64,000 nucleotides of DNA from a bacterium (GTDB taxonomy: Bacteria > Patescibacteriota > Dojkabacteria > JAKAPS01 > JAJZLI01), in the NCBI GenBank assembly GCA_021846685.1, contig JAJZWL010000002.1, positions 9,321 through 73,320 of the forward strand, given 5' to 3'. Shown here piece after piece: positions 5,658 to 52,459 of this stretch. How positions within the stretch are numbered: position 1 is the stretch's first letter; each line of letters opens with the position of its first letter. The notes beneath the pieces were generated by a model. That model did not search any database. It had not been told where the DNA came from and was given only the letters and a program-made list of their open reading frames with translations. A program made the position numbers and the translations under genes.

Positions 5658-7065
5658 TAAAATCCGAACAAACACAATATGGTTACTTTTTTCACAAAGT
5701 ATATCCATAATAGTATCTTTAGGTTTGTCTCTAATACTGGCAAGACATCTAGGACCAAGAGATAATGGGATTTATAATTATGCTAATTCAATTGTAGGTA
5801 TATTCGCTATTTTTGTAGATTTCGGAATGTCGACTGTCTTAATCAGAGATATAGCTAGAAATACTAATTTAGTTAAAAAGTATTTAGATAATTTAATATC
5901 ATTAAAAATTATAATAGGGACTGTCATACTGTTATTAATTGTAATAACCTCATTTTTTATAAAAAAATATGACAATATCACATATATAATGATCTTTTTA
6001 GGACTATATAATATAATGTCCGGTTTTTATCTTCTCTTTACAGGAGTATTTAGATCTCATAATAAAATGGTGTATGAATCATTTGATACAGTTATCATAA
6101 AGGTACTTCTTTTAATCTTCGGAGTAATTGCTCTTTACTATTATAAAAGTCTACTCATATACTCAATGGTACTCTTCTCAACAATGCTGATAGGAATTTT
6201 GATTTCAGTATTGATAATAAGAAAATATTTTTCAAAATTTAGTTTTTCTATAAATAAAGAGTTTTGGATATATATGCTCAAAGAAATATGGCCCTATGGA
6301 TTAAGCTCTATTATTGTGACTGTTTACTTTACAATAGATCAAATCATATTAGGAAGTTTAAAACCAATTACTCAAGTAGGTTATTATGCATTAGCTAGAT
6401 CTGCAACAGGAGTGGTTTTATCATTAATAGGAATTCTCATAGGGGTAGTATTCCCGTCCTTATCAATGCTCTACAAAAAAGATATATCAGCTTTTACGGA
6501 ACTACTAAACAATGCTATTAAATTAATGTCTATTTTACTTATAATATTTATTGTTGAGATGCTTATAAACTCCAAAGGTTATGTTCTTTCTATTTTTGGA
6601 AACAAATATTACAATTCTATATTACCCTTACAAATACTCTCAGTTACAACAGGAATTATATTTATAAATGCACTAATAGGAAATGCATTTGGAGCAATAG
6701 ATAGACAAAAAGATTTACTCTTAGGACTTTTTCTCTCCATGGTCATTAATGTAGGTTTAAATTTTCTATTCATACCTTACTATGGCGCAGTTGGAGCAGC
6801 TAGTGCATCAATTTTTACTGAACTGTTTATAGGAATATACTCTTATACTATACTCAAAAAGGATTTCAAGATAAATTTAATAAAATATTTAAAGATTCCT
6901 GTTCTTGCAGGAATAGTTTCAATGGTGGTAATGTTATTGCTATCACAATATAATGTATACTTAATATCTATAATCGGATTAATGATATATTTCTTAATAT
7001 TAGTATTATCAAAAGAAATAAGTATAGAATTTATAAAGGAAAATTTAAAATTTAGAAACATCTAG
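5650..7065 (+). CDS. Polysaccharide biosynthesis protein, MOP-superfamily flippase (Wzx-like)
   Basis: 471 aa with about 12-14 TM helices; N-terminus typical of Wzx/PST proteins (LILARHLGPRDNGIYNYANSIVGIFAIFVDFGMSTVLIRDIARN). Confidence 0.65.
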   Translation: MINKIRTNTIWLLFSQSISIIVSLGLSLILARHLGPRDNGIYNYANSIVGIFAIFVDFGMSTVLIRDIARNTNLVKKYLDNLISLKIIIGTVILLLIVITSFFIKKYDNITYIMIFLGLYNIMSGFYLLFTGVFRSHNKMVYESFDTVIIKVLLLIFGVIALYYYKSLLIYSMVLFSTMLIGILISVLIIRKYFSKFSFSINKEFWIYMLKEIWPYGLSSIIVTVYFTIDQIILGSLKPITQVGYYALARSATGVVLSLIGILIGVVFPSLSMLYKKDISAFTELLNNAIKLMSILLIIFIVEMLINSKGYVLSIFGNKYYNSILPLQILSVTTGIIFINALIGNAFGAIDRQKDLLLGLFLSMVINVGLNFLFIPYYGAVGAASASIFTELFIGIYSYTILKKDFKINLIKYLKIPVLAGIVSMVVMLLLSQYNVYLISIIGLMIYFLILVLSKEISIEFIKENLKFRNI

Positions 7066-7136
7066 ATATATAAAATATCCTTAACTAATAAGTTTAATTA
7101 TAGTATAATTCTTATTAATATAATAAAAATACACTT

Positions 7137-8252
7137 ATGAGAATAGCAATAGATGCCAGATTTGCAAATTTGAAAGTTGGAATAGGGAGAGTTGCCTATA
7201 ATCTTACTAAAGAAATTCTCCTGCTAGATGATGAGAATTATTACGTAATTCTTCTAGGGGAGAATGATCCTTTTGTTGATATTAAAAAAGATAATGTAAA
7301 AAAGATAAAAAATGCATTTTCAACAAGAAAAAAATTGTTTTGGCAATTTTTCTATCTACCATATATCTTAAAAAAAGAAAAAATAGATATATTTTTTTCA
7401 ACTGAAAATTTCATAATACCTCCATTTTTTAAAGGAAAAACTGTTGTCACAGTACATGATTTAATACCATTAGTATTTAAAGAATATCTTCAAGGAAAAA
7501 TCTCTCCATATAAACTAAAGGTATATATGACAAAATTATTTCCTCCTAAAAAAATAATGACCATTTCTAATTTTTCTAAAGAAGAAATCAAAAGAGTATT
7601 AAAAATAGCTGAAAAAGATATCTTTGTCATTAAAGAAAGTTTTGATAATAGATTGAAGAATATAAAAGAAGATATAAATATATTGCATCATTTAGAAATA
7701 AAAAAACCATATATATTAGGAATAGGAGGAATGGAACTTAGAAAAAATAATAAAGTTCTTATAGATGCTTTTATAGATATGATAGAGAATAATGGAGAGT
7801 TAAGACACTCACTTGTAATAGTTGGGCAAATTTATTCAAAAAAAATTCCTATGGATACAAGAGATATTCCAGAAAATCTTGCAGATAGAATTAAAATGAT
7901 TATAGAAGTTTCTGATGAAGAACTCTCTGTATTATATCAAAATGCTGATATATTCGTATATCCTACGATATATGAAGGATTCGGACTTCCCCCTTTAGAA
8001 TCATTTAAACATAAAACCCCCGTGATAACATCAAATATCACATCAATTCCTGAAGTAGTACAAGATGCTGCAATTCTTATAAATCCTTATAAAAAAGAAG
8101 AAATAGAAGAAGCTATGATAAAAATAATCAGAAGTAATGATTTAAAAGAACAATTAATTAAAAGGGGGACGTCTATTTTAAGAAACTATAATTGGAGTAA
8201 ATCAGCTGAAAAAGTAATCAAGGAATTTAAAAAAATATATGACCAAGAATAA
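7137..8252 (+). CDS. Glycosyltransferase family 4 (GT-B, retaining)
   Basis: EX7E motif 'EGFGLPPLESF'; length and layout of the GT4 RfaB/WcaL type. Confidence 0.8.
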   Translation: MRIAIDARFANLKVGIGRVAYNLTKEILLLDDENYYVILLGENDPFVDIKKDNVKKIKNAFSTRKKLFWQFFYLPYILKKEKIDIFFSTENFIIPPFFKGKTVVTVHDLIPLVFKEYLQGKISPYKLKVYMTKLFPPKKIMTISNFSKEEIKRVLKIAEKDIFVIKESFDNRLKNIKEDINILHHLEIKKPYILGIGGMELRKNNKVLIDAFIDMIENNGELRHSLVIVGQIYSKKIPMDTRDIPENLADRIKMIIEVSDEELSVLYQNADIFVYPTIYEGFGLPPLESFKHKTPVITSNITSIPEVVQDAAILINPYKKEEIEEAMIKIIRSNDLKEQLIKRGTSILRNYNWSKSAEKVIKEFKKIYDQE

Positions 8253-9306
8253 TCCAATATATATAATAACTGAGAATATAGGACAAGGACATAGATCTGT
8301 ATCAGAGGCATTAAAAGAATCTATTGAAGATGAATCTGGGACTAAGGTTGTTGTAATAGATTATTTTTCATTAATAGGGCAAGGTCTAGAAAAAAGTATG
8401 GGGAATATTTATGGTTATTTAATTTTAAATTTTCCATATTTGTATAAATTGATATATAGCCTCATCGATAGAGAAGATTCTTCTACATTAATGGATATGC
8501 TTATCGCACAAAGACTAAAAAATAAAATAGGGCCTAATATAAAAAATGCCATTTTAATAGCTACATTTCCAAATTCTACTATTGCATTATCTTTTATCAA
8601 AGCTCATCGACGTTATGCTGTAATTACTGACTATTACGCACATCAAGGTTGGATAACACAAAAAATAGATGGCTATTTTGTGGCTAATAAAGAAATAAAA
8701 TTACAATTAAAAAAGGCTGGCATAAATGAAAACACAATTCATATAACAGGTATTCCTATAAAAAAAGAATTTTATAAAAAAGTAAATAAACTTAATATAA
8801 AAAAACAGCTAGGTATAAATAATTCAAAAAAGGTTGTTCTCATTCTAGGAGGAGGCGATGGGGTTATTCCTGATGCAGAATATATTGTATCCTTATTTGA
8901 CAACAAAAATAATGTTATTATTATAACTGCTAAAAATTATAGTTTGAAAAAATCATTAGAAAAAAGAAATTTAAAAAATACAAAAATATTTGGATATGTT
9001 GATAATATGTATGAACTCATAAGTATAGCTGATTTGGCAATAACTAAAGCAGGGGGAATTTCATTAAGTGAACTTAATTTAAAAAGAATCCCTATAATAG
9101 TATATAAAACAATACCAGGACAAGAAACTGCTAATACAATATACTTTACAAAAAAACATGCATGTAAAGAAATAAATGATAAAAAAGAATTGAAAATTAC
9201 CGCAAATAAGATATTAAGTGGTAAAATGAAACTTAATGGTATAATAGTAGATACAAAAATACCTGCATTTAATAAAATTATTAATATAATTAACAAGGAT
9301 TTATGA
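8239..9306 (+). CDS. MGDG-synthase/UgtP-like diacylglycerol glycosyltransferase (GT28 family)
   Basis: N-terminal 'ENIGQGHRSVSEALKE' (MGDG_synth motif G-x-G-H); C-terminal Glyco_tran_28_C-like 'TKAGGISLSELNLKRIPIIV'. Confidence 0.6.
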   Translation: MTKNNPIYIITENIGQGHRSVSEALKESIEDESGTKVVVIDYFSLIGQGLEKSMGNIYGYLILNFPYLYKLIYSLIDREDSSTLMDMLIAQRLKNKIGPNIKNAILIATFPNSTIALSFIKAHRRYAVITDYYAHQGWITQKIDGYFVANKEIKLQLKKAGINENTIHITGIPIKKEFYKKVNKLNIKKQLGINNSKKVVLILGGGDGVIPDAEYIVSLFDNKNNVIIITAKNYSLKKSLEKRNLKNTKIFGYVDNMYELISIADLAITKAGGISLSELNLKRIPIIVYKTIPGQETANTIYFTKKHACKEINDKKELKITANKILSGKMKLNGIIVDTKIPAFNKIINIINKDL

Positions 9307-10430
9307 AAAAAAATATAGATAAAAAAAAGAGAATTTTAATATTAATGTCAAAAACAGGAAATGGGCATTTATCAGTAGCAGAAACTCTAAAAGAATATTT
9401 TGAATATGTAGATCCTGAGAAATATGAAGTTAAAATAGTTGATGCCCTACAAGACCACTCAAAAAGAATTGTAAAAAATATATCAAAATCATATGTACCT
9501 GTTGTGAAATATTTACCTACACTTTATACATCTGGTTTTTATTTCACTGACAATGAAATTAGATTATCCCTATTACTATCTTTAATAAGATTACAATCCA
9601 GAAAAAAAGTTACTACATTAATCGATACATTCCAACCTAACCTTATAATATCAGTACATCCACTTGTTAATAAAATTGCGGGCGAAATTTCAAAAAAAAA
9701 GAATATCCCATTTGGAGTTCTTATTACAGATATGTATAATGTTCACGAAAGTTGGTTTAACAGAGATGCTGACCTATATATTGCCCCTAATACTTATGTC
9801 GCAAAACAATGTAAAAAACATGGTATTCAAAATGTAAAAGCTTTTTCAATCCCTGTAAAATTAAAATTTTCAAAACCATTAGATCTAGATAAAATCAGGA
9901 AAAAATATAAACTAGATAAAGATAAACATACTATACTCTTTACCTTTGGAGGAGGAGGTACAGTTAACCCCGCAAAGATTCTTAAAGAACTAATAAAAAA
10001 AGATCCCAATAAATATCAAATTATTGTTAATAATGGAAAAAATATAAAAACATATAGAGAGATAGAAAAAATAAAAATAAAAAGCAAGATGAAAATAGTC
10101 AATTTGGGATTTATTAATAATATGGAAGAAATAATGAATATATCAGATATAGCAGTTTGTAAGGCAGGGGCAACTACAGTTCAAGAATTATTTTCAACAA
10201 CAGTTGTTCCAATAATAATTAATTATGTAAGAGGACAAGAGAAAGACTGCGCAGACTTTGTAAAATTAAAAAGAGCAGGAATTGTGAGTAAAAGAAAAGT
10301 AGTTGAAATTATAGAAAATATTACAAAAAATCCTAAACGACTAGAAAGGTATAAAAGAAATGAAGAAAAATTATCTGATAAAGAATCTGGATTAAAATCT
10401 ATTAAAGAATTTATTAAATTAATAAAATAA
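9303..10430 (+). CDS. Second MGDG-synthase/UgtP-like glycosyltransferase (GT28), tandem paralogue
   Basis: 'SKTGNGHLSVAETLKE' N-motif and 'CKAGATTVQELFSTTVVPIIIN' C-motif; ATGA overlap with the upstream paralogue. Confidence 0.6.
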   Translation: MKKNIDKKKRILILMSKTGNGHLSVAETLKEYFEYVDPEKYEVKIVDALQDHSKRIVKNISKSYVPVVKYLPTLYTSGFYFTDNEIRLSLLLSLIRLQSRKKVTTLIDTFQPNLIISVHPLVNKIAGEISKKKNIPFGVLITDMYNVHESWFNRDADLYIAPNTYVAKQCKKHGIQNVKAFSIPVKLKFSKPLDLDKIRKKYKLDKDKHTILFTFGGGGTVNPAKILKELIKKDPNKYQIIVNNGKNIKTYREIEKIKIKSKMKIVNLGFINNMEEIMNISDIAVCKAGATTVQELFSTTVVPIIINYVRGQEKDCADFVKLKRAGIVSKRKVVEIIENITKNPKRLERYKRNEEKLSDKESGLKSIKEFIKLIK

Positions 10431-10434
10431 AAAT

Positions 10435-11532
10435 ATGGAGATATTACTCGATGCAAGAGAAGCTACTGCTAATACAGGAACAGGTAATGTTATTCGAAAT
10501 CTATATCCCAATATAATAAAAACTGACAAAATAAACTCTTATACTATTTTATATTCAAAAACAGATCCTTTTCCTAATCTGAAATGTAGAAAAATAAAAT
10601 CTCCTAAGGATAAGGGTGCAAGGTTTACGTATATATGGCAAATCTTTGGATTATCTCATTTTTTAAATAAAAATAAATTTAATGTTTTTTTTTCAGTAGA
10701 GAATTTTGTATACCCTATATACTTTAAAGGAACTACTATTATATCCATACAAGACTTGATTCCAATTGCAATTGATAATTACTATGACAAATATAAAGAT
10801 AAAATAAAATATAAAATCCAGCTTTTATCTTTAAAATTCATGAAGAAAAATGATTTAATTTTTACGGTATCTAATTTTTCTAAAAATGAAATCATAAAAT
10901 ATTTGAAGATTAATAAAAATAAAATATTTGTAATTTACAATGGCATAAATATAAAAAAAGCTCCCATACTTTCTACTAGGTATTTAATGAAAAATAATAT
11001 TAAAAAACCTTATATACTAGCAATTGGAGGAGCTGAAAAAAGAAAAAATAATAAGACATTAATTGAAGCGTTTAATGAATTAAAAATTAAAGAAAAATTA
11101 GTTATTATAGGAAAAATAAATAGGGAAGAAAGTGCATCTCAATTTGATACATTAAACATTAAAAATAACAAAAATATAATAACACCAGGAATAGTTGATC
11201 AAAAAACTCTTAGTGCCTTATATAAAAATGCATCTGTATTTGTATTCCTATCTTATTATGAAGGTTTCGGGCTACCTCCACTAGAAGCTTTAAGCTTTTC
11301 AATTCCAACCCTATGTGCTGACAAGACGTCATTACCAGAAATATATAAAGACACAGTCCTATATGCAGATCCATTTAACAAAAATGAAATAAAGGAAAAA
11401 TTAATAGAAATTATCTCTAATCAGACTATGAGAGAAAAATTGATAAAAAACTCGAAACAACTTATTAAAGAATTAACTTGGCAAAAATCAGCAGAAAATT
11501 TTATTCAAACATTAAATACTATTCAAAAATGA
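10435..11532 (+). CDS. Glycosyltransferase family 4
   Basis: 'EGFGLPPLEALSFSIP' EX7E motif; paralogue of 7137..8252. Confidence 0.8.
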   Translation: MEILLDAREATANTGTGNVIRNLYPNIIKTDKINSYTILYSKTDPFPNLKCRKIKSPKDKGARFTYIWQIFGLSHFLNKNKFNVFFSVENFVYPIYFKGTTIISIQDLIPIAIDNYYDKYKDKIKYKIQLLSLKFMKKNDLIFTVSNFSKNEIIKYLKINKNKIFVIYNGINIKKAPILSTRYLMKNNIKKPYILAIGGAEKRKNNKTLIEAFNELKIKEKLVIIGKINREESASQFDTLNIKNNKNIITPGIVDQKTLSALYKNASVFVFLSYYEGFGLPPLEALSFSIPTLCADKTSLPEIYKDTVLYADPFNKNEIKEKLIEIISNQTMREKLIKNSKQLIKELTWQKSAENFIQTLNTIQK

Positions 11533-12518
11533 TAGATATTAAAAAAAATGTAAATCTAAAAAATTATACAACATTTAAAATTGGCGGTAATGCCGAATTA
11601 TTTTCTGAAGCCTTTAGTAATGAAGATTTAATAGATTTAATTAAATATGCACATATAAAAAAAATTCCTACTACTATAATAGGAGGAGGAAGTAATATTC
11701 TTATTTCAGACAATGGAATAAAGGGGCTTACTATCATAAATAGAGCAAAATCAATAGAGATTATTGAAAACCCTAAAATAGACTTTGAAACACAAAATAA
11801 TAAATCACGTTATCAAGAAGGAGAATATTTTAAATTCTCAGATTTAGATGATGATGATTCAATTTATGATAAAGTCATAGTGAAAGTATCCTCTGGAGTA
11901 AATTTGACTTATCTTATCAATGAAACATTATCCAAAGGTATAACAGGGATACAATATTTTACAGCCATTCCAGGATCAATAGGTGGAGCTATTTTTAATA
12001 ATATACATGGAGGATCAAAACTTATTGGAAATCTCGTATATAAAGCACGATTAATAGATTTAAAAGGAAATATTATAAAAGTTGATCATTCTTTTTTTAA
12101 TTTTGACTATGATAAATCTATATTACATGAAAATAAATATTTTCTTCTAGATGTAGAATTAATATTATTTAAAGGAAATATAGACAAAGCAAAAAATACA
12201 TCCAGAGAATGGCTAAAAAGAAAAAGAGCAGTACAACCGATACTTCCTTCAGCAGGATCTATATTTAAAAATATAACAGATGAAGAAAAAGAGGTCATCT
12301 CATCTCCTGTCAATTCAGCAGGTTGGGTAATAGAACAAGCTGGGATGAAAGGATACTCAATTGGTGGAGCTAAAGTATATGATAAACATGCTAATTATAT
12401 TATTAACACAGGAACAGCTACTCAAAAAGACGTATCCTCTCTAATATTGGAAATTAAAGAAAAAGTATTAAAAAAGTTTAAGATCGAAATTAATGAAGAA
12501 ATAATATTTAAAGAATAA
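11529..12518 (+). CDS. murB: UDP-N-acetylenolpyruvoylglucosamine reductase MurB (start set at the ATG overlapping the upstream TGA; the ORF track's 11478 start lies inside the previous gene)
   Basis: FAD-binding motifs 'NYTTFKIGGNAELF' and 'GGGSNIL'; C-terminal 'SAGSIFKN'; ATGA overlap at 11529-11532. Confidence 0.8.
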   Translation: MIDIKKNVNLKNYTTFKIGGNAELFSEAFSNEDLIDLIKYAHIKKIPTTIIGGGSNILISDNGIKGLTIINRAKSIEIIENPKIDFETQNNKSRYQEGEYFKFSDLDDDDSIYDKVIVKVSSGVNLTYLINETLSKGITGIQYFTAIPGSIGGAIFNNIHGGSKLIGNLVYKARLIDLKGNIIKVDHSFFNFDYDKSILHENKYFLLDVELILFKGNIDKAKNTSREWLKRKRAVQPILPSAGSIFKNITDEEKEVISSPVNSAGWVIEQAGMKGYSIGGAKVYDKHANYIINTGTATQKDVSSLILEIKEKVLKKFKIEINEEIIFKE

Positions 12519-12605
12519 TAATTTTACTTTTCTGTATTCTATTACCTCAAATTCATTCTTACCCTCTTTATTTTTTCCCTTATACTCCAATTCTATTCCA
12601 TAGAA
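12453..12605. repeat. Direct repeat copy 1 (~150 bp): the authentic 3' end of murB plus a truncated 3' remnant of the LysW-like gene
   Basis: About 95% identical to 13558..13708 by direct alignment of the two stretches; differs at a few positions (aaaaaagttta/aaaaagttca; ttctgtattc/ttcttcttc; ccatagaa/ccacagaa). Confidence 0.85.
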
Positions 12606-12716: not shown

Positions 12717-12746
12717 TTGACAAGAATAATCTAGTATGTATATAAT
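12717..12746 (+). promoter_or_regulatory. Near-consensus sigma70 promoter of the toxin-antitoxin operon (TTGACA-N18-TATAAT), giving a leaderless or near-leaderless transcript
   Basis: TTGACA 12717-12722 and TATAAT 12741-12746. The spacer contains the 20-bp CTAGTATG palindromic motif, a likely operator. Confidence 0.5.
12725..12743. repeat. Motif copy L (AATAATCTAGTATGTATAT) overlapping the TA promoter
   Basis: Imperfect inverted partner at 13293..13313; related direct copy at 13499..13516. Confidence 0.6.
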
Positions 12747-13029
12747 AGATAATATGAAAACAGCAACTGTTAATTTTAAAACAGATATATCAATTAAAAT
12801 AAAAGCTCAAGAGGTTGCTCATAAATTGGGTATTCCATTAAGTAATTTACTAAATGCATACCTTTATGAGCTCATTAATACAGGTAGTGTACATTTTACT
12901 ACTACTGAACCAATGACTGAAAAAATGGAAAAAATTATTGCGCAGGCAGAGTTAGAAATGGCTTCAGGAAAAGTTAGTGGTCCATTTAAAACTGTTGAAG
13001 AGTTCTTTGCCCATCTTGATAATTTATAA
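12736..13029 (+). CDS. dinJ: Type II antitoxin, RelB/DinJ family (ribbon-helix-helix); likely true start is the second Met at 12754
   Basis: 'KTATVNFKTDISIKIKAQEVAHKLGIPLSNLLNAYLYELINTGSV' matches the DinJ/RelB N-terminal RHH pattern; stop overlaps the toxin start (TAATG). Confidence 0.6.
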   Translation: MYIIDNMKTATVNFKTDISIKIKAQEVAHKLGIPLSNLLNAYLYELINTGSVHFTTTEPMTEKMEKIIAQAELEMASGKVSGPFKTVEEFFAHLDNL

Positions 13030-13286
13030 TGAATATTCAGACTACAAAAAATTTCGATAAACAGTACTCAAAACTCAATATAAAAATTAAAAATCAGTTT
13101 AAAAAGAATATAGAATTATTTAAACTTAATCCATTTGACATAACTTTAAGAAATCACGCACTTAAAGGAAGGTACTTAGGATATAGAAGTATTGATATTA
13201 GCGGAGATGTTAGAGCATTATATACAGTCAAAGGAAATACTATAATTATATTTGCATTCATTGGTACACATAGTCAATTATATTAA
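13029..13286 (+). CDS. yafQ: Type II toxin, RelE/YafQ-family mRNA interferase
   Basis: 'HALKGRYLGYRSIDISGDVRALYTVKGNTIIIFAFIGTHSQLY' aligns with the E. coli YafQ C-terminus (HPLQGSWKGYRDAHVEPDWILIYKL...LRFERTGTHAALF). Confidence 0.65.
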   Translation: MNIQTTKNFDKQYSKLNIKIKNQFKKNIELFKLNPFDITLRNHALKGRYLGYRSIDISGDVRALYTVKGNTIIIFAFIGTHSQLY

Positions 13287-13530: not shown

Positions 13531-13557
13531 TAAAATAGCGTACTAGAGTATCATTAT

Positions 13558-13708
13558 ATTAAAGAAAAAGTATTAAAAAGTTCAAGATCGAAATTAATGA
13601 AGAAATAATATTTAAAGAATAATAATTTTACTTTTCTTCTTCTATTACCTCAAATTCATTCTTACCCTCTTTATTTTTTCCCTTATACTCCAATTCTATT
13701 CCACAGAA
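13558..13708. repeat. Direct repeat copy 2 (~150 bp): a non-functional copy of the murB 3' end plus the authentic 3' end of the LysW-like gene
   Basis: See copy 1. Here the murB-derived part is a remnant and the LysW-like gene reads through intact. Confidence 0.85.
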
Positions 13709-13786
13709 AGGACACTCAACTGTCTCTCCTACAGAAACTTTTTCTATCTTAAATTCATTTTGACACTCAGTACATGTAATATCCAT
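13628..13786 (-). CDS. Small (52 aa) zinc-ribbon protein resembling LysW/ArgW amino-group carrier proteins; below the ORF-track length cutoff
   Basis: Hand translation of the minus strand gives MDITCTECQNEFKIEKVSVGETVECPFCGIELEYKGKNKEGKNEFEVIEEEK. The CxxC-x12-GE-x-V-x-C-x-x-CG-x-ELE pattern aligns with Thermus LysW (TCPECGAEINLENPELGELVVCEDCGAELEV) and the tail is acidic. Unlike canonical LysW (EDWGE), it ends in Lys. Confidence 0.5.
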   Translation of the reverse strand: MDITCTECQNEFKIEKVSVGETVECPFCGIELEYKGKNKEGKNEFEVIEEEK

Positions 13787-13894
13787 ATGCACCTATTATA
13801 CAATAAATATATCAAATATCAAATTATTAAAATTCAAAATACATGTTCTATCATTGCTTTAAGTAAAGTTACTATGTTACCATAATTAGCAATT

Positions 13895-16255
13895 ATGCAA
13901 GAAGGATATAATTTTAAAGAAATTGAAAAAAAATGGAGAGAGTTTTGGAAAAAAACAGAACTTTATAAAACTGATATATATACTAAAAAAAATAAGGCCT
14001 ATATATTAGATATGCTTCCATATCCTTCTGGAGCAGGATTACATGTTGGCCATCTTAAAGGTTATGTCGGTAGTGATGTTACCGCAAGATATAAAAGATT
14101 AAAAGGTTTCGAAATTTTACATCCAATGGGATGGGATGCATTTGGACTTCCAACAGAAAATTTTGCTATAAAAACTGGGAAAGATCCCTATACAGTAACT
14201 GAAGAAAATATTTCAGAATTTAAAAAAGAATTAATAAATGTAGGACTTAGTATTGACTGGGATAAAGAAATTAATACTTCACACAAAGATTACTATAAAT
14301 TCACACAATTATTATTTCTGAAATTATATAAAAAAGGATTAGCAGAGAAAAAAAAATCTCCCGTTAATTGGTGTCCTTCATGTAAAACCGTACTTTCAAA
14401 TGAACAATCAATTGGAGGAGTATGTGAAAGATGTGATAATCAAATTGAGATAAAAATTATCGATCAATGGTACTTCAAAATAACAGAATACGCTGAAAGA
14501 CTATTAAACGATATACCTTCACTTAAGTGGCCTGTATCAACAAAAAAAATGCAAGAAAAATGGATAGGGAAAAGTAAAGGTGCTGAAATTAGTTTCAAAA
14601 TAGAAAACAAAGATTTTAATCTTAATATATTTACTACAAAACCTGAAACTATATATGGAGTAACTTTTATAGTAATTGCTCCTGAAAATACATTAATAGA
14701 TAAAATCACAACAAAAGAATATCAAACAGATGTGAAAAATTATATAAAAAATATATCACCTCAATCTGAAATAGAGAGAAAAAAAGATGTGAAAACAGGA
14801 GTGTTTACAGGATCCTTTGCTATAAATCCAATAAATAATAATAAAATTCCAATCTGGATAGCAGACTATGTACTTATGGAATATGGAACAGGGGCAGTAA
14901 TGGGAGTTCCTGCTCATGATAAAAGAGATTTACTCTTCGCAACAAAACATGATCTTAAAGTTGAATTTGTATTAGATGAAAATATTAAAGATTATAAACA
15001 GTCAAAAATGATAATAGGGGAATATAAAGGGAAGTATGTAGAAGAGGTAAGAGATAATATAATTAAAGATATCAAAGGAGCTAAACACAAAACAGAATAT
15101 AAATTGAGAGATTGGTCAATATCTAGAGAAAGATTTTGGGGAGCACCAATTCCTATTATATACTGTGATCAATGTGGAGAAGTTCCCGTAAAAGAATCTG
15201 ATCTCCCAGTTATTTTGCCAGATGATATTACTAATTATAAGCCAACTGGAGTAGCCCCTTTAACAAAATCTGATCAATTTATGAATACAAAATGCCCTAA
15301 TTGTAATGGGGATGCAAAAAGAGAAGCAAAAACAATGGATACTTTTGTAGATTCATCTTGGTACTACTTAAGGTATATTGATCCTTATAATAAAAAAGAA
15401 TTTGGAAACAAAGACAGTCTTAATAAATGGATGCCAGTTGATTTATATATAGGAGGAAGTGAACATGCAGTTGGTCATTTACTATATTCAAGATTCATAA
15501 CTAAATTTTTATATGATGAAGGATATTTAAATTTTTCAGAACCTTTTGAACAATTAAAACATGTAGGATTAATATATGGAGAAGATAAAAGAAAAATGAG
15601 CAAAAGGTGGGGAAATGTTATTACTGCTAAATTTGTATTAGATGAATATGGAGCAGATGTAACAAGGTTATATGAAATGTTTATGGAACCATTTGAACAA
15701 TATGCGTTTTGGAATACAAATGCTATTATAGGTGTCAAAAGATTTATTAACAGGGTATGGAAACTTCAATACATAATATCTAAAAAAGAACATCCAGAAG
15801 AAACAATAGCAACGAATAAACTAATTCAAAAAGTAGATGAATATATTAAAAAAGGAAAATATAATCTATCAGTTAGTGAATATATGAAATATATGAATAA
15901 AATAGAAGAGCTAGGATCAATTACAAAAGAAAATTTTGAGAAATTTTTAATTACACTTTCACCTTATGCACCATTCATTTCTGAAGAATTATTCTCCATA
16001 TTAGGACACAATGAAAGTATACATCTATCTTCATGGCCTCAAGTTCAAAATAACTCCATAAAGGAAACTCATATAACATTACCAGTACAGATAAATGGTA
16101 AATTAAGAGGAACAATTTATATAGAAATAGACTCCAGTGAAAAAACAGTATTAGAAAAAATAAATAAGGATGATAAGTTATCACAAAAAATTGATCTTGA
16201 GAATATAAAAAAAGTTATTTATGTAAAAAATAAAATTATAAATATACTTAATTAA
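13895..16255 (+). CDS. leuS: Leucyl-tRNA synthetase
   Basis: HVGH (HIGH) motif, editing domain, 'KMSKRWGN' (KMSKS) motif, 786 aa. Confidence 0.95.
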   Translation: MQEGYNFKEIEKKWREFWKKTELYKTDIYTKKNKAYILDMLPYPSGAGLHVGHLKGYVGSDVTARYKRLKGFEILHPMGWDAFGLPTENFAIKTGKDPYTVTEENISEFKKELINVGLSIDWDKEINTSHKDYYKFTQLLFLKLYKKGLAEKKKSPVNWCPSCKTVLSNEQSIGGVCERCDNQIEIKIIDQWYFKITEYAERLLNDIPSLKWPVSTKKMQEKWIGKSKGAEISFKIENKDFNLNIFTTKPETIYGVTFIVIAPENTLIDKITTKEYQTDVKNYIKNISPQSEIERKKDVKTGVFTGSFAINPINNNKIPIWIADYVLMEYGTGAVMGVPAHDKRDLLFATKHDLKVEFVLDENIKDYKQSKMIIGEYKGKYVEEVRDNIIKDIKGAKHKTEYKLRDWSISRERFWGAPIPIIYCDQCGEVPVKESDLPVILPDDITNYKPTGVAPLTKSDQFMNTKCPNCNGDAKREAKTMDTFVDSSWYYLRYIDPYNKKEFGNKDSLNKWMPVDLYIGGSEHAVGHLLYSRFITKFLYDEGYLNFSEPFEQLKHVGLIYGEDKRKMSKRWGNVITAKFVLDEYGADVTRLYEMFMEPFEQYAFWNTNAIIGVKRFINRVWKLQYIISKKEHPEETIATNKLIQKVDEYIKKGKYNLSVSEYMKYMNKIEELGSITKENFEKFLITLSPYAPFISEELFSILGHNESIHLSSWPQVQNNSIKETHITLPVQINGKLRGTIYIEIDSSEKTVLEKINKDDKLSQKIDLENIKKVIYVKNKIINILN

Positions 16256-16257
16256 TT

Positions 16258-17193
16258 ATGGACAATTCCGAAAAAAAAGGTATATGGCTATATGAAGATA
16301 TTTATTCTTATAAAATCAAAGGTGAAAATAGAATAAGTATTGGAGAAGGAAATACCCAACTAGAAAGATTAAAGTTCTTAGAAATAGCATTAGGGATCCC
16401 TGTTATATATGCAAAAAGAGAAGATAAAAATCCTACAGGATCAGCTAAAGATAGATCCACTGCTTTCTTTTTTTCTTATCTTAAATCTAATAGAATAAAT
16501 GAAGTTGTAATTCCGTCTTCTGGTAATACAGCAATATCTGCAGCATATTATGGAAAGATAACAGGGATTAAATTATATTTATTTATATCAGAAAATTTTT
16601 CAATTATAAAAAACCAAAGATTAAATAAAGCTTTAAAAAACAATAAAAATATAGAAATTATTAAATCAAAAAGACCTTTATCTGATGCCATTAAATATGC
16701 AAAAGAAAATCATATAGAACTATTTAGAGGATCTACCTCACAAATAGCAATTGAAGGATATAAAAGCTTAGGAGAAGAATTATCATTAATAAGAGCAGAT
16801 GCTCTGTTTATCCCTATAAGTAGTGGAACTACAATAGAAGGAATATCAAAAAGATTAAATAAAAATTGCCACATACATATAGTACAGACATCAAAAATTA
16901 ATACTATCTCAAGATTATTTGATACTAATTTTAAATCAGAGAATGTCACCCTAGCAGACTCAATAGTAGCTAGAGTTACTGAAAGAAAAAAAGCTATTGA
17001 AGACATAATAAATAAAACTAAAGGGTGGGGTTGGACAGTGGAAAATACAGAGATTCAAGAATGTCATGATTTATTAATAAAAAATGGAATAAATACATCT
17101 TATGACTCCAGTATCACTATTGCAGCTCTAATGAAGGCAATAAAAAAGGGATATAAATTTAAAAAAGTTATATTAGTTTTCACAGGAAAATGA
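16258..17193 (+). CDS. Threonine synthase-family PLP-dependent enzyme (fold type II), short form
   Basis: 'GEGNTQL', catalytic-lysine motif 'NPTGSAKDR', 'SSGNTAISAAYYG', and 'IPISSGTT' mirroring ThrC motifs. 311 aa, shorter than typical ThrC. Confidence 0.65.
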   Translation: MDNSEKKGIWLYEDIYSYKIKGENRISIGEGNTQLERLKFLEIALGIPVIYAKREDKNPTGSAKDRSTAFFFSYLKSNRINEVVIPSSGNTAISAAYYGKITGIKLYLFISENFSIIKNQRLNKALKNNKNIEIIKSKRPLSDAIKYAKENHIELFRGSTSQIAIEGYKSLGEELSLIRADALFIPISSGTTIEGISKRLNKNCHIHIVQTSKINTISRLFDTNFKSENVTLADSIVARVTERKKAIEDIINKTKGWGWTVENTEIQECHDLLIKNGINTSYDSSITIAALMKAIKKGYKFKKVILVFTGK

Positions 17194-18479
17194 ATAACAT
17201 AGATAATCTATTAGGAAATAATAATATAATATATGTCACAAATGACCCTGAAAGATCTTTAGGTTTAGAAAAAATTACAAAACATTTTTACACTCTATGC
17301 ATAGATGATTCATATATATTAAATTTTTTAAATAATTTTTATTCTTTAAAAAAAAATTTTCCAAACATAGATATATTTAGAAATTCCAATAAATTATTAC
17401 AAGAAGAATCAGTAAAACAATACCTATCTTCTATTAAGAATCCTTCGTTTATGTTTTTTAAAATAGCTCCAAATATTGAAATAGAATTAAAAAATAAAAA
17501 AATTTTAAACACACACTCAGATCTAAATAGAAAATATGAAAACAAAATAATGATTAGTAATATTTTCAAAGATATAGTACCGCCAACAAAAATTATTAAT
17601 TTAAAAATAGATACATACAATTCAATTTCAAATTTTCTGGGAAAGGAGTTTGTAATACAATTTTCTAGAGGACAAAGTGGAAATACCACATTTTTCATTG
17701 ATAATAAAGATCAATTTGAAAAATTACAAGAAAAATATCCTCTAAGAATAGCAAAAGCTGTAAAAAAAATATCCGGTGAATACTTCACGATAAATGGAGT
17801 TATCACAGAAAATGATATTCTAATAGGAAATCTTTCAAAACAAATTACAGGAATAAAAGAATTAACAGCCTTTAAAGGAGGTACTGTAGGAAATGAATGG
17901 ATTACAGGATTAACAATAAAACAAAAAGATATGTTTATTGATAAAATGCAATATATTGGTAAAAAAATGAAAAATGATGGTTATAGAGGTATGTTTGGTG
18001 CAGATTTTGTTTTTGATTCACAAAATATTTTTTTAATAGAGGTAAATGCTAGAGAAAATGCATCTATACCTACATATACAAAAATACAAATTAATGAGAA
18101 TATACTACCTTTTAAATTAATACATATACTTGATTTTCTAAAGATATCATACAAAATAGATTCTACAAAAATTAATAATCAAATATATGAAGATTATAAT
18201 TACAGACAAATAATAATAAGAAATATTCAATCTCACCCTGTAAAAGCAAATACATTTTTAAATGGAGTATATTCTTCTAATTTAGATAAGATTAGAGAAG
18301 GTTATGATATTGATTCATTAAAAAATAATGATTATTTAATTCTCACTTCATATTCAAATGTAAATCCTAATATAGAAATATCTAAAATACAATCAAAAAG
18401 TAGTATAGATAATAATTTTATTAATCAAACTTTAATCAAATTATTGCAAAATCCAGGTGAAGATAATATAATCCTTTAA
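17190..18479 (+). CDS. ATP-grasp domain protein with extra N- and C-terminal regions; translationally coupled to the ThrC-like gene
   Basis: Central ATP-grasp motif '...YRGMFGADFVFDSQNIFLIEVNARENAS...'; ATGA overlap at 17190; about 200 aa N-terminal and about 140 aa C-terminal regions not recognised. Confidence 0.5.
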   Translation: MNNIDNLLGNNNIIYVTNDPERSLGLEKITKHFYTLCIDDSYILNFLNNFYSLKKNFPNIDIFRNSNKLLQEESVKQYLSSIKNPSFMFFKIAPNIEIELKNKKILNTHSDLNRKYENKIMISNIFKDIVPPTKIINLKIDTYNSISNFLGKEFVIQFSRGQSGNTTFFIDNKDQFEKLQEKYPLRIAKAVKKISGEYFTINGVITENDILIGNLSKQITGIKELTAFKGGTVGNEWITGLTIKQKDMFIDKMQYIGKKMKNDGYRGMFGADFVFDSQNIFLIEVNARENASIPTYTKIQINENILPFKLIHILDFLKISYKIDSTKINNQIYEDYNYRQIIIRNIQSHPVKANTFLNGVYSSNLDKIREGYDIDSLKNNDYLILTSYSNVNPNIEISKIQSKSSIDNNFINQTLIKLLQNPGEDNIIL

Positions 18480-18513: not shown

Positions 18514-19815
18514 ATGAACATCAAGAGAACGTATTTATTTTATTTTTTTGCACTAGTAGTATTAATTATTTTTTCTATATCGTATGTACTACACAATAAA
18601 GTAAAACCTGCTACAACATACTATTATAAAAGTTATAATCAATATTCGAATAATGGAAAAGATAATAATGTAGTGACAGGATCAAAAAAAACATTACTAT
18701 CTAAAGTAATACTTTCTAAAAATATTAATTCCCTAGGATTCGATACTACACCTATTGTCTCTGGAGATATGGAGTATGTTGGGACTATGAATAGAACTAC
18801 ACTTACTGGTGGTTTATATGCAATAAAAAGAACTACAGGTAAAGTTGCATGGCATGATAATTTTTCAAACTGGATTATGACAAATCCAGTAGTAGTACCT
18901 TCTAAAAATATGGTATTTGTAGGATCAGGAAACAGTAAGCACTATGGAAATATAAAGAATACGAACACTCTATATAGAGGAACTGGGAATAATTACATCT
19001 ATGGAATAAATATTACTAACGGTAAAGTTATATGGAAATACAAGACACTAGGAGAAAATATGCCTACACCTATTTATAAGAATGGAATACTGTACTTTGT
19101 AAATGGAAATAGAAAATTTTATGCACTAAATTCTACTACTGGAAAATTATTATGGAGTATTAGTACAGGATCTATAGTGTCTATGTCTTCTCCTGTACTT
19201 ATAGGAAATAATGTATATTTTGGAGGAGCACTTCCTTATAAATTCTTTGATGTTAATATAAGAACGAAAAAAATAGCTTGGGCAGACAGTTTTCCTAAAG
19301 TTACTGGCGCTTTAGATGATACTACACCTACATATTCAAATGGGTATATCTATACTAATGCAACGGTGCTTACTAATTATAAAAATAATATGGGGACAGA
19401 ATATTTATATAAAATAAATGCAAAAACAGGAAAAATTATATGGAGTCTAAAAGAAGGTAGTGGTGTAATCAACCTTCCTACTGATCCAATGGAAGGAAGT
19501 GTATCTACTATAGTTAATAATATACTGTATACCTCATCTAATACAACAAGAAAGATTTTTGCAGTAAATGTAGATACAAAAAAAGTATTATGGAATTTTA
19601 AAGTAAAAGGAATGGTAAATTCACCATTTATAGTAATGAAAAATCTTATTTATTCTACTACAGTTAATGGGAATATTTATGTACTCAATATTAAAAATGG
19701 AGAATTTATAGCAAAAAGAACTTTAGGTGGTCCAGAATTAGCTTCAGGAATAAGCTTTTATAGCGGAAAATTCTATGCAACTACTGGAAATGGAAATTTC
19801 TATGTTTTCCAATAA
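18514..19815 (+). CDS. Membrane-anchored PQQ-like beta-propeller repeat protein
   Basis: N-terminal TM helix; repeated 'TGK(V/L/I)(I/L)W' blades (GKVAWHD, GKVIWKYKT, GKLLWSIST, GKIIWSLKEG, KKVLWNFKVKG). Confidence 0.6.
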   Translation: MNIKRTYLFYFFALVVLIIFSISYVLHNKVKPATTYYYKSYNQYSNNGKDNNVVTGSKKTLLSKVILSKNINSLGFDTTPIVSGDMEYVGTMNRTTLTGGLYAIKRTTGKVAWHDNFSNWIMTNPVVVPSKNMVFVGSGNSKHYGNIKNTNTLYRGTGNNYIYGINITNGKVIWKYKTLGENMPTPIYKNGILYFVNGNRKFYALNSTTGKLLWSISTGSIVSMSSPVLIGNNVYFGGALPYKFFDVNIRTKKIAWADSFPKVTGALDDTTPTYSNGYIYTNATVLTNYKNNMGTEYLYKINAKTGKIIWSLKEGSGVINLPTDPMEGSVSTIVNNILYTSSNTTRKIFAVNVDTKKVLWNFKVKGMVNSPFIVMKNLIYSTTVNGNIYVLNIKNGEFIAKRTLGGPELASGISFYSGKFYATTGNGNFYVFQ

Positions 19816-24472: not shown

Positions 24473-24501
24473 TTGACAAATATCAACTTTGATCTTATAA
24501 T
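24473..24501 (+). promoter_or_regulatory. Consensus sigma70 promoter (TTGACA-N17-TATAAT) in front of the NlpC/P60-like gene
   Basis: TTGACA 24473-24478, TATAAT 24496-24501, ATG at 24512. Confidence 0.45.
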
Positions 24502-24511
24502 ATTTTATTAT

Positions 24512-25222
24512 ATGAGTGATATTAAAATTAAAAAATTACCTCAAGAGTGCTTTGATATATATGGACAGTATAATAATGTTCCTTATTATATAAATAAAAG
24601 TAAAAATAAATTCTTAAAAAATATCAATAGAGGAAAAGCTAGCCCAAAAGAAATCGACCTATTTATATTAAATAAGAATAATAATAAAGCTCTCAAAGGG
24701 AAAAATAAATATAATTTCTTAAAAGAAAACAAAGTAGGGATTGATTGCTCAGGTTTTGTATCATATATTCTAGAAGAATTAGCCTTAAAAAATAAAGATA
24801 AGCATATTTGGGAAATAATTCATAATACCACTAAAAATCCAATTAAAATATTCTATTCTCATAAAATAAGACCTATTAGCTCTAAAATGAATGCTGATAT
24901 ATTAACAAATGATATTAACAGTATTACTATAAAAAAAATAAATGATATAAAACCAGGAGATTTAATAAGAATGAATGGGGGAAAACATATTGCTATAATA
25001 TCAGAAGTACATTATAACAAAAAAAATGTATCAAAAATCATCTATTGGCAATCTACTGAAAATATAGGAGTTTGTGAATCTGAAATAATTATACAAGATC
25101 CAAATAAAGAGTTAAAAGATCAATTATGGAAGAAGATTAAAGGCTCTAAATATGATACACTCTCATTATATAAGAAAAAAATAAACTCTAATGGAGTAAA
25201 AAGATTAAAATTAATTTCATAA
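24512..25222 (+). CDS. NlpC/P60-family cysteine peptidase-like protein with no signal peptide; start moved to the ATG downstream of the promoter, whereas the ORF track starts at 24473 inside the -35 box
   Basis: Catalytic Cys motif 'GIDCSGFVSYIL' and downstream 'PGDLIRMNGGKHIAIISEV' (His) in NlpC/P60 order; N-terminus is not hydrophobic. Confidence 0.5.
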   Translation: MSDIKIKKLPQECFDIYGQYNNVPYYINKSKNKFLKNINRGKASPKEIDLFILNKNNNKALKGKNKYNFLKENKVGIDCSGFVSYILEELALKNKDKHIWEIIHNTTKNPIKIFYSHKIRPISSKMNADILTNDINSITIKKINDIKPGDLIRMNGGKHIAIISEVHYNKKNVSKIIYWQSTENIGVCESEIIIQDPNKELKDQLWKKIKGSKYDTLSLYKKKINSNGVKRLKLIS

Positions 25223-25225
25223 ATT

Positions 25226-26320
25226 ATGTTAGCAGCTTTTACATTTTTAATATTATCGTTATTAGTATCTTTATTGGTAGCACCATTTATAATTGATTTA
25301 TTGTATCAATTTAAGGTGGTTAGAGGTAGAGCTTCGGATGACACACTAAAAATAAAAAAAAGACAGTCCAAATTGGGCACACCAATGATGGGAGGTATAA
25401 TTATCATTATATCTGTAGTGATAATTACATTATTATTCAATTGGAATAAATATACACAGATTCCTATATTAATATTCTTAATAGGTTCAGCTTTAGGTGC
25501 TATAGATGATTTACTAAATATATTTGGAAAGAAGAAAAGAGTTTTCAAAAGTTTTAAACATCATTTAAAATTAGCTCTTCATCATAAAAAAATAACTAAA
25601 AGAATATTCTATATAATTACTATTCCTTGGGCTTTATATCGAGGATTATTTAATTCAATAGGATCAAGATATGGTACAGGATTATATCCTCATGAAAGAA
25701 TTCTAATTCAAATTATAGAAAGTGCCATAGTGTCTTACTATGTATTCTTTTACTTGCATATTCAAAGTATTTGGATATGGTCTAATATATATGTAAATAT
25801 AGGAATATGGATTATTCCATTAATCTTTTTAATAATTATATCTACTGCAAATGCTGTTAATATAACAGATGGGTTAGATGGATTATCTGTAGGTGTTATG
25901 ATTGCAGCTTTTATAACATTTATGACAATAGCATTGATTCAAAAAAATGAAAGTATTGCAATATTATCTGGAACTATAACAGGAGCATTAGTAACATATC
26001 TATATTTCAATATAAAACCTGCTAGAGTACAAATAGGGGATATAGGCACATTAGGATTAGGATCACTATTAGGAATAATATCAATAATTCTTCAAAAAGA
26101 ATTAATATTAGTTATTGTTGGAGGAGTATTTGTAGTAGAAACACTATCTGTAATAATTCAAAAATTAGGGAAAAAATATCTTCATAAAAAATTCTTTTTA
26201 ATGGCACCTCTTCATCATCATTTAGAATTATTAGGGTGGTCTGAAGAAAAAATAGTAATGAGATTATGGATTTTTTCTTTTATTCTAGCACTAATATCTA
26301 TCTGGATATCTCTTATTTAA
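25226..26320 (+). CDS. mraY: Phospho-N-acetylmuramoyl-pentapeptide transferase MraY, with a ~40-aa Lys/His-rich insertion
   Basis: 'KLGTPMMGG', 'DDLLN', 'NAVNITDGLDGL', 'GDIGTLGLGSLLG', 'APLHHHLELLGW'. Confidence 0.85.
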   Translation: MLAAFTFLILSLLVSLLVAPFIIDLLYQFKVVRGRASDDTLKIKKRQSKLGTPMMGGIIIIISVVIITLLFNWNKYTQIPILIFLIGSALGAIDDLLNIFGKKKRVFKSFKHHLKLALHHKKITKRIFYIITIPWALYRGLFNSIGSRYGTGLYPHERILIQIIESAIVSYYVFFYLHIQSIWIWSNIYVNIGIWIIPLIFLIIISTANAVNITDGLDGLSVGVMIAAFITFMTIALIQKNESIAILSGTITGALVTYLYFNIKPARVQIGDIGTLGLGSLLGIISIILQKELILVIVGGVFVVETLSVIIQKLGKKYLHKKFFLMAPLHHHLELLGWSEEKIVMRLWIFSFILALISIWISLI

Positions 26321-43871: not shown

Positions 43872-44648
43872 ATGCCTAAAAAGAAAGTAGATACAGAACA
43901 AAATCAAAATACATCTATACTGAATAAATATATGTTACCTATCTCAATAATTATAGCAGGGGTAATAATTGGAATGGCTATATTTATTTCTTCACGAGGA
44001 ACTTCAAATACAACTCAGAACCTTAATAATACAAATTCTAAAAGTAGTGCAAGTGCTTCACAAACTACTCCTACAAATAATACAAATACCAATACTGTAA
44101 CTGTTTCTCTTGGTTCTAATCCAGTATTAGGAAATATAAAAACTGCAAAAGTGGGTATAGTAGAATTTGGAGATTTTCAGTGCCCATATTGTAAGGAATT
44201 TAATAATTCAGCCTTTCCTACAATTCAAAGTAATTATATTAATAATGGAAAAATAATCTATTCTTTTAGAAATTATCCTCTAACTACAATACATCCATTA
44301 TCACTAGGTATGGCTCAAGAATCTGGGTGTTTCGGAGAACAAGGCAAGTTTTGGGAATTTGTCAGTAAAATGTACAGCACAAATCAAGATACTAATACTC
44401 CTAATGTAGTAGCTCAATATGCCAAAGAAATGGGTTTAAATATGACAGATTATAATAATTGTGTACAAAACGATCCATTTCAATCTAAAATACAAAATGA
44501 TATTAACGCTGGAAATAGAATTAATCTACAAGGAACACCCTCATTTGTTATCGGAAAATATAAAAATAATAAAGTAACAGGACAAATAATACTCGGATCT
44601 AGAGCAGTTTCATACTATGAAACTATATTAAGTCAATACTTAAATTAA
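43872..44648 (+). CDS. Membrane-anchored DsbA-like thiol:disulfide oxidoreductase
   Basis: N-terminal TM; thioredoxin-fold CxxC 'FGDFQCPYCKEF'. Confidence 0.7.
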   Translation: MPKKKVDTEQNQNTSILNKYMLPISIIIAGVIIGMAIFISSRGTSNTTQNLNNTNSKSSASASQTTPTNNTNTNTVTVSLGSNPVLGNIKTAKVGIVEFGDFQCPYCKEFNNSAFPTIQSNYINNGKIIYSFRNYPLTTIHPLSLGMAQESGCFGEQGKFWEFVSKMYSTNQDTNTPNVVAQYAKEMGLNMTDYNNCVQNDPFQSKIQNDINAGNRINLQGTPSFVIGKYKNNKVTGQIILGSRAVSYYETILSQYLN

Positions 44649-52293: not shown

Positions 52294-52341
52294 TTAAAAA
52301 TTATACCAAAAAAGAGATTAAAAAGGATAGTTATTTTTAAT

Positions 52342-52415: not shown

Positions 52416-52459
52416 TTATATAAAGAATAATGAATTATTACATAAAAACTACTTTTTTA

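Follow-up and report, generated by a model that had tools for sequence, protein, structure and literature searches.

The present study concerns a stretch of 64,000 nucleotides from a Dojkabacteria genome (assembly GCA_021846685.1, contig JAJZWL010000002.1, positions 9,321 to 73,320 of the forward strand), referred to below as the window, and within it a small minus-strand gene at 13628-13786. Three results stand out. First, the small gene is part of a conserved four-gene module, which comprises the small protein, a threonine synthase (ThrC)-like pyridoxal phosphate (PLP) enzyme, an ATP-grasp ligase and an NlpC/P60-type cysteine amidase. Second, the small protein is predicted to be an acidic zinc-ribbon protein of the LysW fold, and its relatives form, as judged from their sequences, a distinct Patescibacteria-specific family of LysW-fold proteins in which the terminal residue is an invariant lysine. 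Third, the module is embedded among genes for peptidoglycan precursors (MurA/B/C, MraY and Ddl). The module is probably an unknown carrier-protein pathway, and it probably marks a missing or unusual step of peptidoglycan-precursor synthesis in Patescibacteria, because its neighbours in many of these genomes are MurA/B/C and MraY, the biosynthetic capacity of these bacteria is minimal, and the chemistry of their cell wall is essentially uncharacterised. If this is true, the module would represent an unknown, widely conserved step supplying a peptidoglycan building block, such as a D-amino acid or an unusual diamino acid, in the Patescibacteria (Candidate Phyla Radiation, CPR), and a system of four proteins is small enough for reconstitution in E. 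coli. In the window, the components of the module are located as follows.

13628-13786, minus strand: small gene, candidate zinc-ribbon carrier of predicted LysW fold, 52 aa with four Cys, strongly acidic, ending in VIEEEK with terminal Lys
16258-17193, plus strand: PALP gene, threonine-synthase-like fold-type-II PLP enzyme (Pfam PALP, E 3.9e-40)
17190-18479, plus strand: ATP-grasp ligase, overlapping the end of PALP by 4 bp at its start
24473-25222, plus strand: NlpC/P60 or Amidase_6-like cysteine amidase, predicted cytoplasmic, about 250 aa, weak Pfam matches

The small protein, its tail and its partners

The open reading frame (ORF) at 13628-13786, stop codon included, encodes 52 amino acids with the sequence MDITCTECQNEFKIEKVSVGETVECPFCGIELEYKGKNKEGKNEFEVIEEEK; both the frame and the protein reported in an earlier note on this DNA were identical on re-reading. 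An in-frame GTG at 13792 is an alternative start that would add two residues, although the ATG at 13786 is likely the start of the gene and is favoured because homologues begin M-x-x-T-C. The motifs TATAAT and AGGTG can be read directly upstream of this ATG. Four proteins with 74-98% identity to the small protein had already been called in public data, and one that is 98% identical bears the name 'lysine biosynthesis protein LysW'. A genome scan with an ATP-grasp alignment, taking one genome per species, returned 312 ATP-grasp relatives, all from Patescibacteria metagenome-assembled genomes, of which 80 loci with 27-70% identity were kept as the basis of all fractions of 80 given below; a metagenome search used a subset of nine sequences of the small protein. 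A family hidden Markov model (HMM) detected the small gene in 51 of the 80 independent Patescibacteria genome loci and in nine metagenome loci. A spurious reading frame was rejected on the strength of these matches and of the Pfam match, and the conservation points to a genuine gene.

The LysW-type fold was assigned from several comparisons. Pfam PF21344 (Zn_ribbon_LysW) matched residues 4-33 with 33.5 bits (E 3.3e-08) against a gathering score of 27, and the same match is precomputed for relatives of the small protein in related loci. The best sequence matches in the PDB were the LysW proteins of Thermus and Thermococcus. An AlphaFold (AF2) model of the small protein reached a pLDDT of 86, and the top six Foldseek matches obtained with this model were all LysW structures with TM scores of 0.72-0.77, the remaining matches falling below 0.5. 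The LysW-like zinc ribbon that the earlier note had described thus found support both in the Pfam family model and in the structural comparison that had been proposed as its checks. An archaeal RNA polymerase subunit P (Rpo12) was rejected as an identity, since the NCBIfam equivalogs scored far below their cut-offs (22 vs 89 and 20.5 vs 103 bits), the PDB matches were weaker than those to LysW, and the genome is bacterial; rubredoxin and Trm112 were likewise rejected in Pfam, NCBIfam and PDB sequence comparisons. Separately, repeated LysW-like zinc ribbons were observed in the long proteins P0053 (620 aa), P0054 (1330 aa), P0060 and P0062, which contain 4-10 tandem matches to the small-protein profile and are devoid of the EEEK tail.

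When 1.8 billion representative proteins were searched with HMMER and the locus data were added, 93 unique members of the family were obtained. The four Cys, E24 and the terminal K were invariant in an alignment of 35 members, and in the full sample the terminal residue was K in 93/93 and position -3 was E or D in 93/93. The tail follows the consensus h-h-[E/D]-E-[E/G]-K, with hydrophobic residues at -5 and -6 and either E or G at -2, so that two tail classes, hhEEEK and hhDEGK, are found; the median net charge of the 93 members is -8. The C-terminus singled out in the earlier note as non-canonical, EEEK instead of EDWGE, is therefore a family-wide property. Canonical LysW and ArgW consist of a zinc ribbon of three or four Cys followed by an EDWGE tail, in which the gamma-carboxylate of the terminal Glu carries the substrate, and the tail is read by the GSWGR motif of LysX/ArgX (PMC10433800). 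The DEGK variant can be aligned with EDWGE, D at -4 and G at -2 being common to both, and the essential difference is therefore the terminal exchange of E for K.

The tightest genomic partner of the small gene is PALP, which was found in 52/80 loci; these are the same loci as those with the small gene except for L027, a 2.6-kb locus that ends beside PALP and is the sole exception to their co-occurrence. The two genes are divergent neighbours in most loci, and among loci of 15 kb or more the small gene was present in 40 of 49. The same picture was obtained from other starting points. With the small protein as the start, all informative metagenome loci (7/7) showed the arrangement small / PALP - ATP-grasp - amidase, and with PALP as the start, both L102 and L103 had the small gene nearby. 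In L008 and L009, whose ATP-grasp is 49-55% identical, a PF21344 gene lies 1.5-4 kb upstream of PALP-ATP-grasp with other genes between. In the more distant Dojkabacteria loci L010 and L011 (36% identity), a PF21344 gene and PALP are immediate divergent neighbours, with ATP-grasp after PALP; leuS is missing from the interval between the small gene and PALP, and apart from the module the neighbourhood bears no relation to that of the window. The amidase gene follows ATP-grasp directly in 60/80 loci, is fused to it in 2/80 and lies elsewhere within the locus in 14/80, and a fusion of ATP-grasp and amidase was also seen in proteins P0032 and P0039. A co-occurrence survey of the kind outlined in the earlier note therefore links the small gene to PALP, ATP-grasp and amidase across Patescibacteria. 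These partners are present in the window itself and had been overlooked because leuS lies between them and the small gene in this lineage; the small protein is no orphan carrier.

The order of the genes is not always the same. In L017, L020 and L032, an alternative order PALP(-) small(+) ATP-grasp(+) was observed, and in L020 the small gene's stop codon lies right against the start of ATP-grasp (5431), which suggests translational coupling of the putative carrier with the ligase. The interval between the small gene and PALP also contains an aldo-keto reductase and an HD-domain gene in L008 (3096-6974).

The PALP protein contains the PLP-lysine motif GSAKDR and keeps a Ser-x-Asn loop (SSGNA). 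It scored far under every NCBIfam cut-off for ThrC, CysK and SbnA, the top ThrC score being 96.9 vs 358 bits, and the family profile compared with solved structures placed class-II ThrC first (2e-25), ahead of dehydratases and racemases (about 1e-15) and CysK/SbnA (about 1e-10); structures of SbnA and CysM, including entry 3dwg (CysM), were among the PDB matches. These scores indicate an enzyme that is ThrC-like and not ThrC. More than 1,900 relatives were found, and the 120 matches listed carry generic names only, those labelled with an organism being Patescibacteria. The ATP-grasp ligase belongs structurally to the PurK/PylC/L-amino-acid-ligase group and not to the RimK/LysX group; it has no GSWGR motif, and it does not fall into the graspetide-type class of MdnB, MdnC and PsnB. 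The amidase gene lies about 6 kb downstream of ATP-grasp in the window, directly before mraY, and its product is homologous both to the gene after ATP-grasp in other loci and to the C-terminal domains of ATP-grasp fusion proteins of 739 and 736 aa. Residues C92, H172, D163 and N149 are invariant, and a hydrophobic segment was found in 0/75 sequences; the invariant Cys, His, Asp and Asn, together with the lack of any hydrophobic, membrane or signal segment, argue that the fourth component is an active cytoplasmic cysteine amidase.

The peptidoglycan context is also reflected in the counts. MraY was found in 47/80 loci, MurB in 31/80 and MurC in 29/80, and each of five housekeeping controls in 0/80.

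Chemistry proposed for the terminal lysine

We put at about even the chance that the tail is covalently processed by the partner enzymes. Within this general claim, a specific chemistry with reversed polarity at the terminal Lys is suggested tentatively, as a possibility with clearly lower expectations. The ligase belongs to a group that activates small-molecule carboxylates, the carrier candidate ends in an amine, and a PLP enzyme and an amidase complete the set, which together lead us to propose three steps of tethering, transformation and release. The attachment point would be the epsilon-amine of the terminal Lys, in place of the gamma-carboxylate of the terminal Glu of LysW. First, the ATP-grasp enzyme would activate a carboxylate of a small amino-acid substrate and join it to the Lys epsilon-amine as an amide, leaving the alpha-amino group free. 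Second, the PLP enzyme would transform the tethered amino acid. Third, the cysteine amidase would hydrolyse the amide, and the product would be freed for the stem peptide or the cross-bridge. In a variant, the PLP enzyme would act first and catalyse a beta- or gamma-replacement in which the nucleophile is the epsilon-amine of Lys. A PLP enzyme requires a free alpha-amino group, and tethering through the carboxylate would therefore fit, whereas N-acylation of the LysW type would not. The NlpC/P60 family classically cuts amide bonds of the gamma-glutamyl type (gamma-D-Glu). A LysW-fold protein that tethers an amino acid by its Lys epsilon-amine might be called a 'carboxyl-group carrier protein' and would be the first of its kind, although we regard its existence as rather doubtful. 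A D-glutamate product, formed by gamma-tethering, PLP-dependent racemisation and release by NlpC/P60, was also considered and was set aside as speculation, the PLP enzyme being ThrC-like and not racemase-like.

Several points weigh against the proposed tethering on lysine. All steps of the mechanism are deduced from the linkage of the genes, the class of the folds and the logic of the motifs. The Ser-x-Asn loop of this PLP fold binds the alpha-carboxylate of the substrate; since the SSGNA loop is kept, tethering through the alpha-carboxyl group is disfavoured, and side-chain tethering or Lys as the nucleophile would remain. The usual substrates of ThrC-like enzymes are phospho-esters, and it is not obvious why these should require a carrier. 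In addition, 29/80 of the ATP-grasp loci are without the small gene in their flanks and 28/80 are without PALP. Some of these loci are short contigs, and in loci of the Magasanikbacteria type the pair of small gene and PALP is 5-8 kb away; the pair of ligase and amidase may work without the carrier in some genomes. Finally, the AF2 model leaves only about four residues beyond the last predicted strand, a short arm for serving three active sites.

Other explanations were weighed against tethering on lysine. In one of them, which we consider unlikely, the protein would be a pre-loaded amino-group carrier: the encoded terminal Lys would itself be the cargo, as in LysW-gamma-Lys, and the peptide bond would protect its alpha-amine. 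Alkylation of the free epsilon-amine by beta- or gamma-replacement would fall to the PLP enzyme, the NlpC/P60 enzyme would clip off the lysine so modified, and the ATP-grasp enzyme would add free L-Lys again to the shortened tail in the style of RimK or tubulin tyrosine ligase (TTL). The small gene pairs most tightly with the PLP enzyme, as such a cycle would lead one to expect, and SbnA and CysM structures are among the PALP matches; PALP-fold enzymes often add an incoming nucleophile to an aminoacrylate, which is an amine for SbnA and the C-terminus of CysO for CysM. The pairing of a ligase with a peptidase would also suit a cycle of loading and release, and the tail resembles LysW-Lys. However, a Lys codon would be dispensable if the ligase adds the residue again, yet the residue is kept throughout the 93 members, and the ATP-grasp enzyme is structurally nearer to ligases of small-molecule carboxylates than to the RimK, LysX and TTL enzymes that extend protein C-termini.

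It is likewise improbable, in our estimation, that the small protein acts as a non-covalent accessory subunit, whose zinc ribbon would bind and regulate or scaffold the PLP enzyme, or connect it with the pair of ligase and amidase, with the tail serving for docking or as a pseudo-substrate. The pairing with PALP persists where ATP-grasp and amidase are 5-8 kb off, small zinc ribbons are often structural subunits, and the weaker sequence matches of the protein are to RNA polymerase subunit P. Against a purely structural role, the strictest conservation outside the zinc site falls on the extreme C-terminus (K and the E or D at -3), which is the pattern of a reactive tail or of one inserted into an active site, as in LysW, and the closest structural relatives are all covalent carriers.

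A thiocarboxylate sulfur carrier comparable to the CysO/CysM/Mec+ system has a small probability. In such a system the ATP-grasp enzyme would activate the C-terminal carboxylate, sulfide would convert it to a thiocarboxylate, the PLP enzyme would employ this thiocarboxylate as the nucleophile towards O-phospho-serine or O-phospho-homoserine, and the cysteine peptidase would release Cys or homocysteine. The components match those of the mycobacterial system one to one, CysM structures (including 3dwg) are among the PALP matches, and the pairing of the small gene with PALP is tight. The fold, however, is the LysW zinc ribbon and not the beta-grasp of ThiS, MoaD or CysO, and the terminus is E-x-K with invariant Lys and not Gly-Gly. 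The module has no conserved sulfurtransferase, since the window's gene of the rhodanese family occurs in 3/80 loci only, and the conserved context is peptidoglycan synthesis and not sulfur metabolism. We also know of no ATP-grasp enzyme that forms a thiocarboxylate.

A graspetide-like peptide is hardly more than a slight chance. The ATP-grasp enzyme would form a lactam between Glu -3 and the terminal Lys, and the NlpC/P60 enzyme would be the processing peptidase. A small peptide with an invariant Glu and Lys two residues apart beside an ATP-grasp enzyme and a peptidase would agree with this, and graspetide ligases form cross-links between Lys and Glu or Asp. Nevertheless, the putative core peptide is almost invariant across phylum-level diversity, the neighbourhood is one of housekeeping cell-wall genes and is unlike variable natural-product clusters, the putative leader folds as a zinc ribbon, the presence of a PLP partner is not accounted for, and the ATP-grasp enzyme is of the wrong class.

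The canonical LysW/ArgW carrier of lysine or arginine biosynthesis, for which the Pfam LysW domain match, the LysW fold and the name of the 98%-identical protein might speak, is refuted on five defining features and retains a negligible probability: the NCBIfam LysW models NF041070 and TIGR01206 stay below their cut-offs (27.5 vs 75 and 25.4 vs 53.2 bits), the tail VIEEEK has neither EDWGE nor a terminal Glu, there is no RimK-type LysX/ArgX partner with GSWGR, and none of the LysZ/Y/J/K families AA_kinase, Semialdhyde_dh, Aminotran_3 and Peptidase_M20 was found by Pfam in the scanned ORFs of the window or in annotated related loci. The first approximately 10 kb of the window were assessed by synteny only, and two short ORFs of the ATP synthase operon were excluded. 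Within this scope, the statement in the earlier note that lysX/Y/Z/J/K are absent from the window is borne out, and the non-canonical role that it had suggested for the LysW scaffold is supported by partner enzymes that differ from those of LysW.

Surroundings of the module and a toxin-antitoxin insertion

The neighbouring features of the module in the window are listed below.

11478-12518, plus strand: MurB (Pfam MurB_C and FAD_binding_4), convergent with the small gene in the window's lineage
13787-13894, no strand: divergent intergenic region of 108 bp, separating the small gene from the leuS-PALP-ATP-grasp operon
13895-16255, plus strand: leuS, between the small gene and PALP, lineage-specific and outside the module
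25226-26320, plus strand: MraY (Pfam Glycos_transf_4), directly downstream of the amidase
12453-12605, no strand: left repeat copy, in which the murB 3' end is the true one and the small gene is reduced to a decayed 3' fragment
12736-13286, plus strand: inserted toxin-antitoxin (TA) cassette, with a RelB antitoxin (12736-13029) and a YafQ/RelE-type toxin (13029-13286), both from Pfam
13557-13708, no strand: right repeat copy, in which the small gene has its intact 3' end and murB is represented by a 3' fragment

Both promoters presumably lie within the 108-bp intergenic region. Further neighbours in the window were rejected as partners for want of conservation alongside the module: a leucyl-tRNA synthetase (LeuRS) homologue was found in 5/80 loci only, a PQQ beta-propeller in 1/80, TrhO/rhodanese in 3/80, and an alpha/beta-hydrolase and a 474-aa Mur ligase in 8/80 each. 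The PQQ-like beta-propeller, which has a hydrophobic N-terminus (18514-19815), follows ATP-grasp in the window's lineage only. Four ORFs near ftsA/ftsZ, namely 44640-45647(-), 48251-48922(-), 48943-50154(+) and 51772-54027(-), have no Pfam match at E <= 1e-5.

In other loci, further genes were observed between MraY and MurC. A gene of approximately 213-229 aa with a weak match to ATE_C (aminoacyl-tRNA protein transferase or Fem-like) lies there in 25/80 loci, for example L085 14302-14943, L011 15856-16545 and L102 5026-5670, and it is possibly another component of this cell-wall module. In the module-bearing locus L103, the corresponding position is occupied by a DUF1611 gene (6447-7637). We take DUF1611 to include MurL, the UDP-MurNAc-L-Ala-L-Glu epimerase; if so, this genome would have another route to D-Glu.

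The 3' end of the small gene has been duplicated together with that of murB. A direct repeat of approximately 154 bp, whose copies at 12453-12605 and 13557-13708 are 98-99% identical, spans the 3' ends of both genes and flanks the RelB/YafQ cassette, which sits between the convergent murB and small gene; the duplication by a TA insertion that the earlier note had claimed is thereby confirmed. The decayed fragment in the left copy corresponds to ORF 12468-12590, with its tail mutated to EVIEYRKVK..., and the copies differ by a 1-nt indel and by substitutions that fall precisely on the codons for EEEK in the dead copy. In L008, ATP-grasp is directly followed by a related RelB/YafQ pair (9304-9848) with 66% nucleotide identity over 280 bp, and this adjacency suggests that the TA cassette is mobile within this neighbourhood.

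Comparison with known systems

Literature searches outside subscription journals returned no description of the family or of the module, nor anything relevant on a LysW-like, ATP-grasp, PLP or Patescibacteria system. Public names such as 'lysine biosynthesis protein LysW' and 'threonine synthase' derive from generic homology, and they mislead. Four known systems can be compared with the module. PylC, the ATP-grasp enzyme of pyrrolysine biosynthesis, acylates the epsilon-amine of L-lysine; it shares about 10% sequence identity with the ATP-grasp enzyme of the module, its substrate is free lysine, and the pylB and pylD genes are absent here. In glutathionylspermidine and trypanothione synthetase-amidase, a CHAP amidase of the NlpC/P60 superfamily is fused to an ATP-grasp synthetase. 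The likeness lies in the association or fusion of an ATP-grasp enzyme with a papain-like cysteine amidase; as is proposed for the module, the first forms and the second cleaves a single amide bond that joins a carboxylate to an amine. However, the order of the domains is reversed, the amidase being C-terminal in the Patescibacteria fusions, the sequences are unrelated at the family level, and glutathione and spermidine are replaced here by a protein tail and a PLP enzyme.

The CysO-CysM-Mec+ system (with MoeZ) carries out protein-bound cysteine synthesis in Mycobacterium tuberculosis. A small carrier, a PALP-fold enzyme, an ATP-dependent activator and a product-releasing hydrolase correspond one to one, the C-terminus of the carrier entering the PALP-fold enzyme in the mycobacterial system and being predicted to do so here, whereas the parts themselves differ: CysO has a beta-grasp fold instead of a zinc ribbon and a Gly-Gly thiocarboxylate instead of Glu-x-Lys, activation is by E1-like adenylation instead of ATP-grasp, release is by a JAMM metalloprotease instead of NlpC/P60, and no sulfurtransferase is linked to the window's module.

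The remaining comparison is with the LysW/ArgW system of Thermus, Sulfolobus, Thermococcus and haloarchaea. The zinc-ribbon fold, the size and the strong acidity are shared, as is a short conserved C-terminal motif with an invariant last residue, in which the DEGK variant has the D at -4 and the G at -2 in common with EDWGE, and an ATP-grasp enzyme and an amide hydrolase in the gene set would follow the load-and-release logic of LysX and LysK. In contrast, the terminal residue is Glu there and Lys in the window's family, the ligase is of the RimK/LysX type with GSWGR there and of the PurK/PylC/L-amino-acid-ligase group here, a kinase, a dehydrogenase and an aminotransferase are replaced by one ThrC-like PLP enzyme, an M20 metallopeptidase is replaced by an NlpC/P60 cysteine amidase, and the context here is that of Patescibacteria peptidoglycan precursors. 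To our knowledge, biosynthesis on LysW-type carriers has been described only where the carrier ends in Glu and the ligase is of the RimK type, for lysine, arginine and a few Streptomyces natural products. If the proposal is true, the opposite chemistry of the tail and the different set of enzymes would extend the LysW carrier paradigm.

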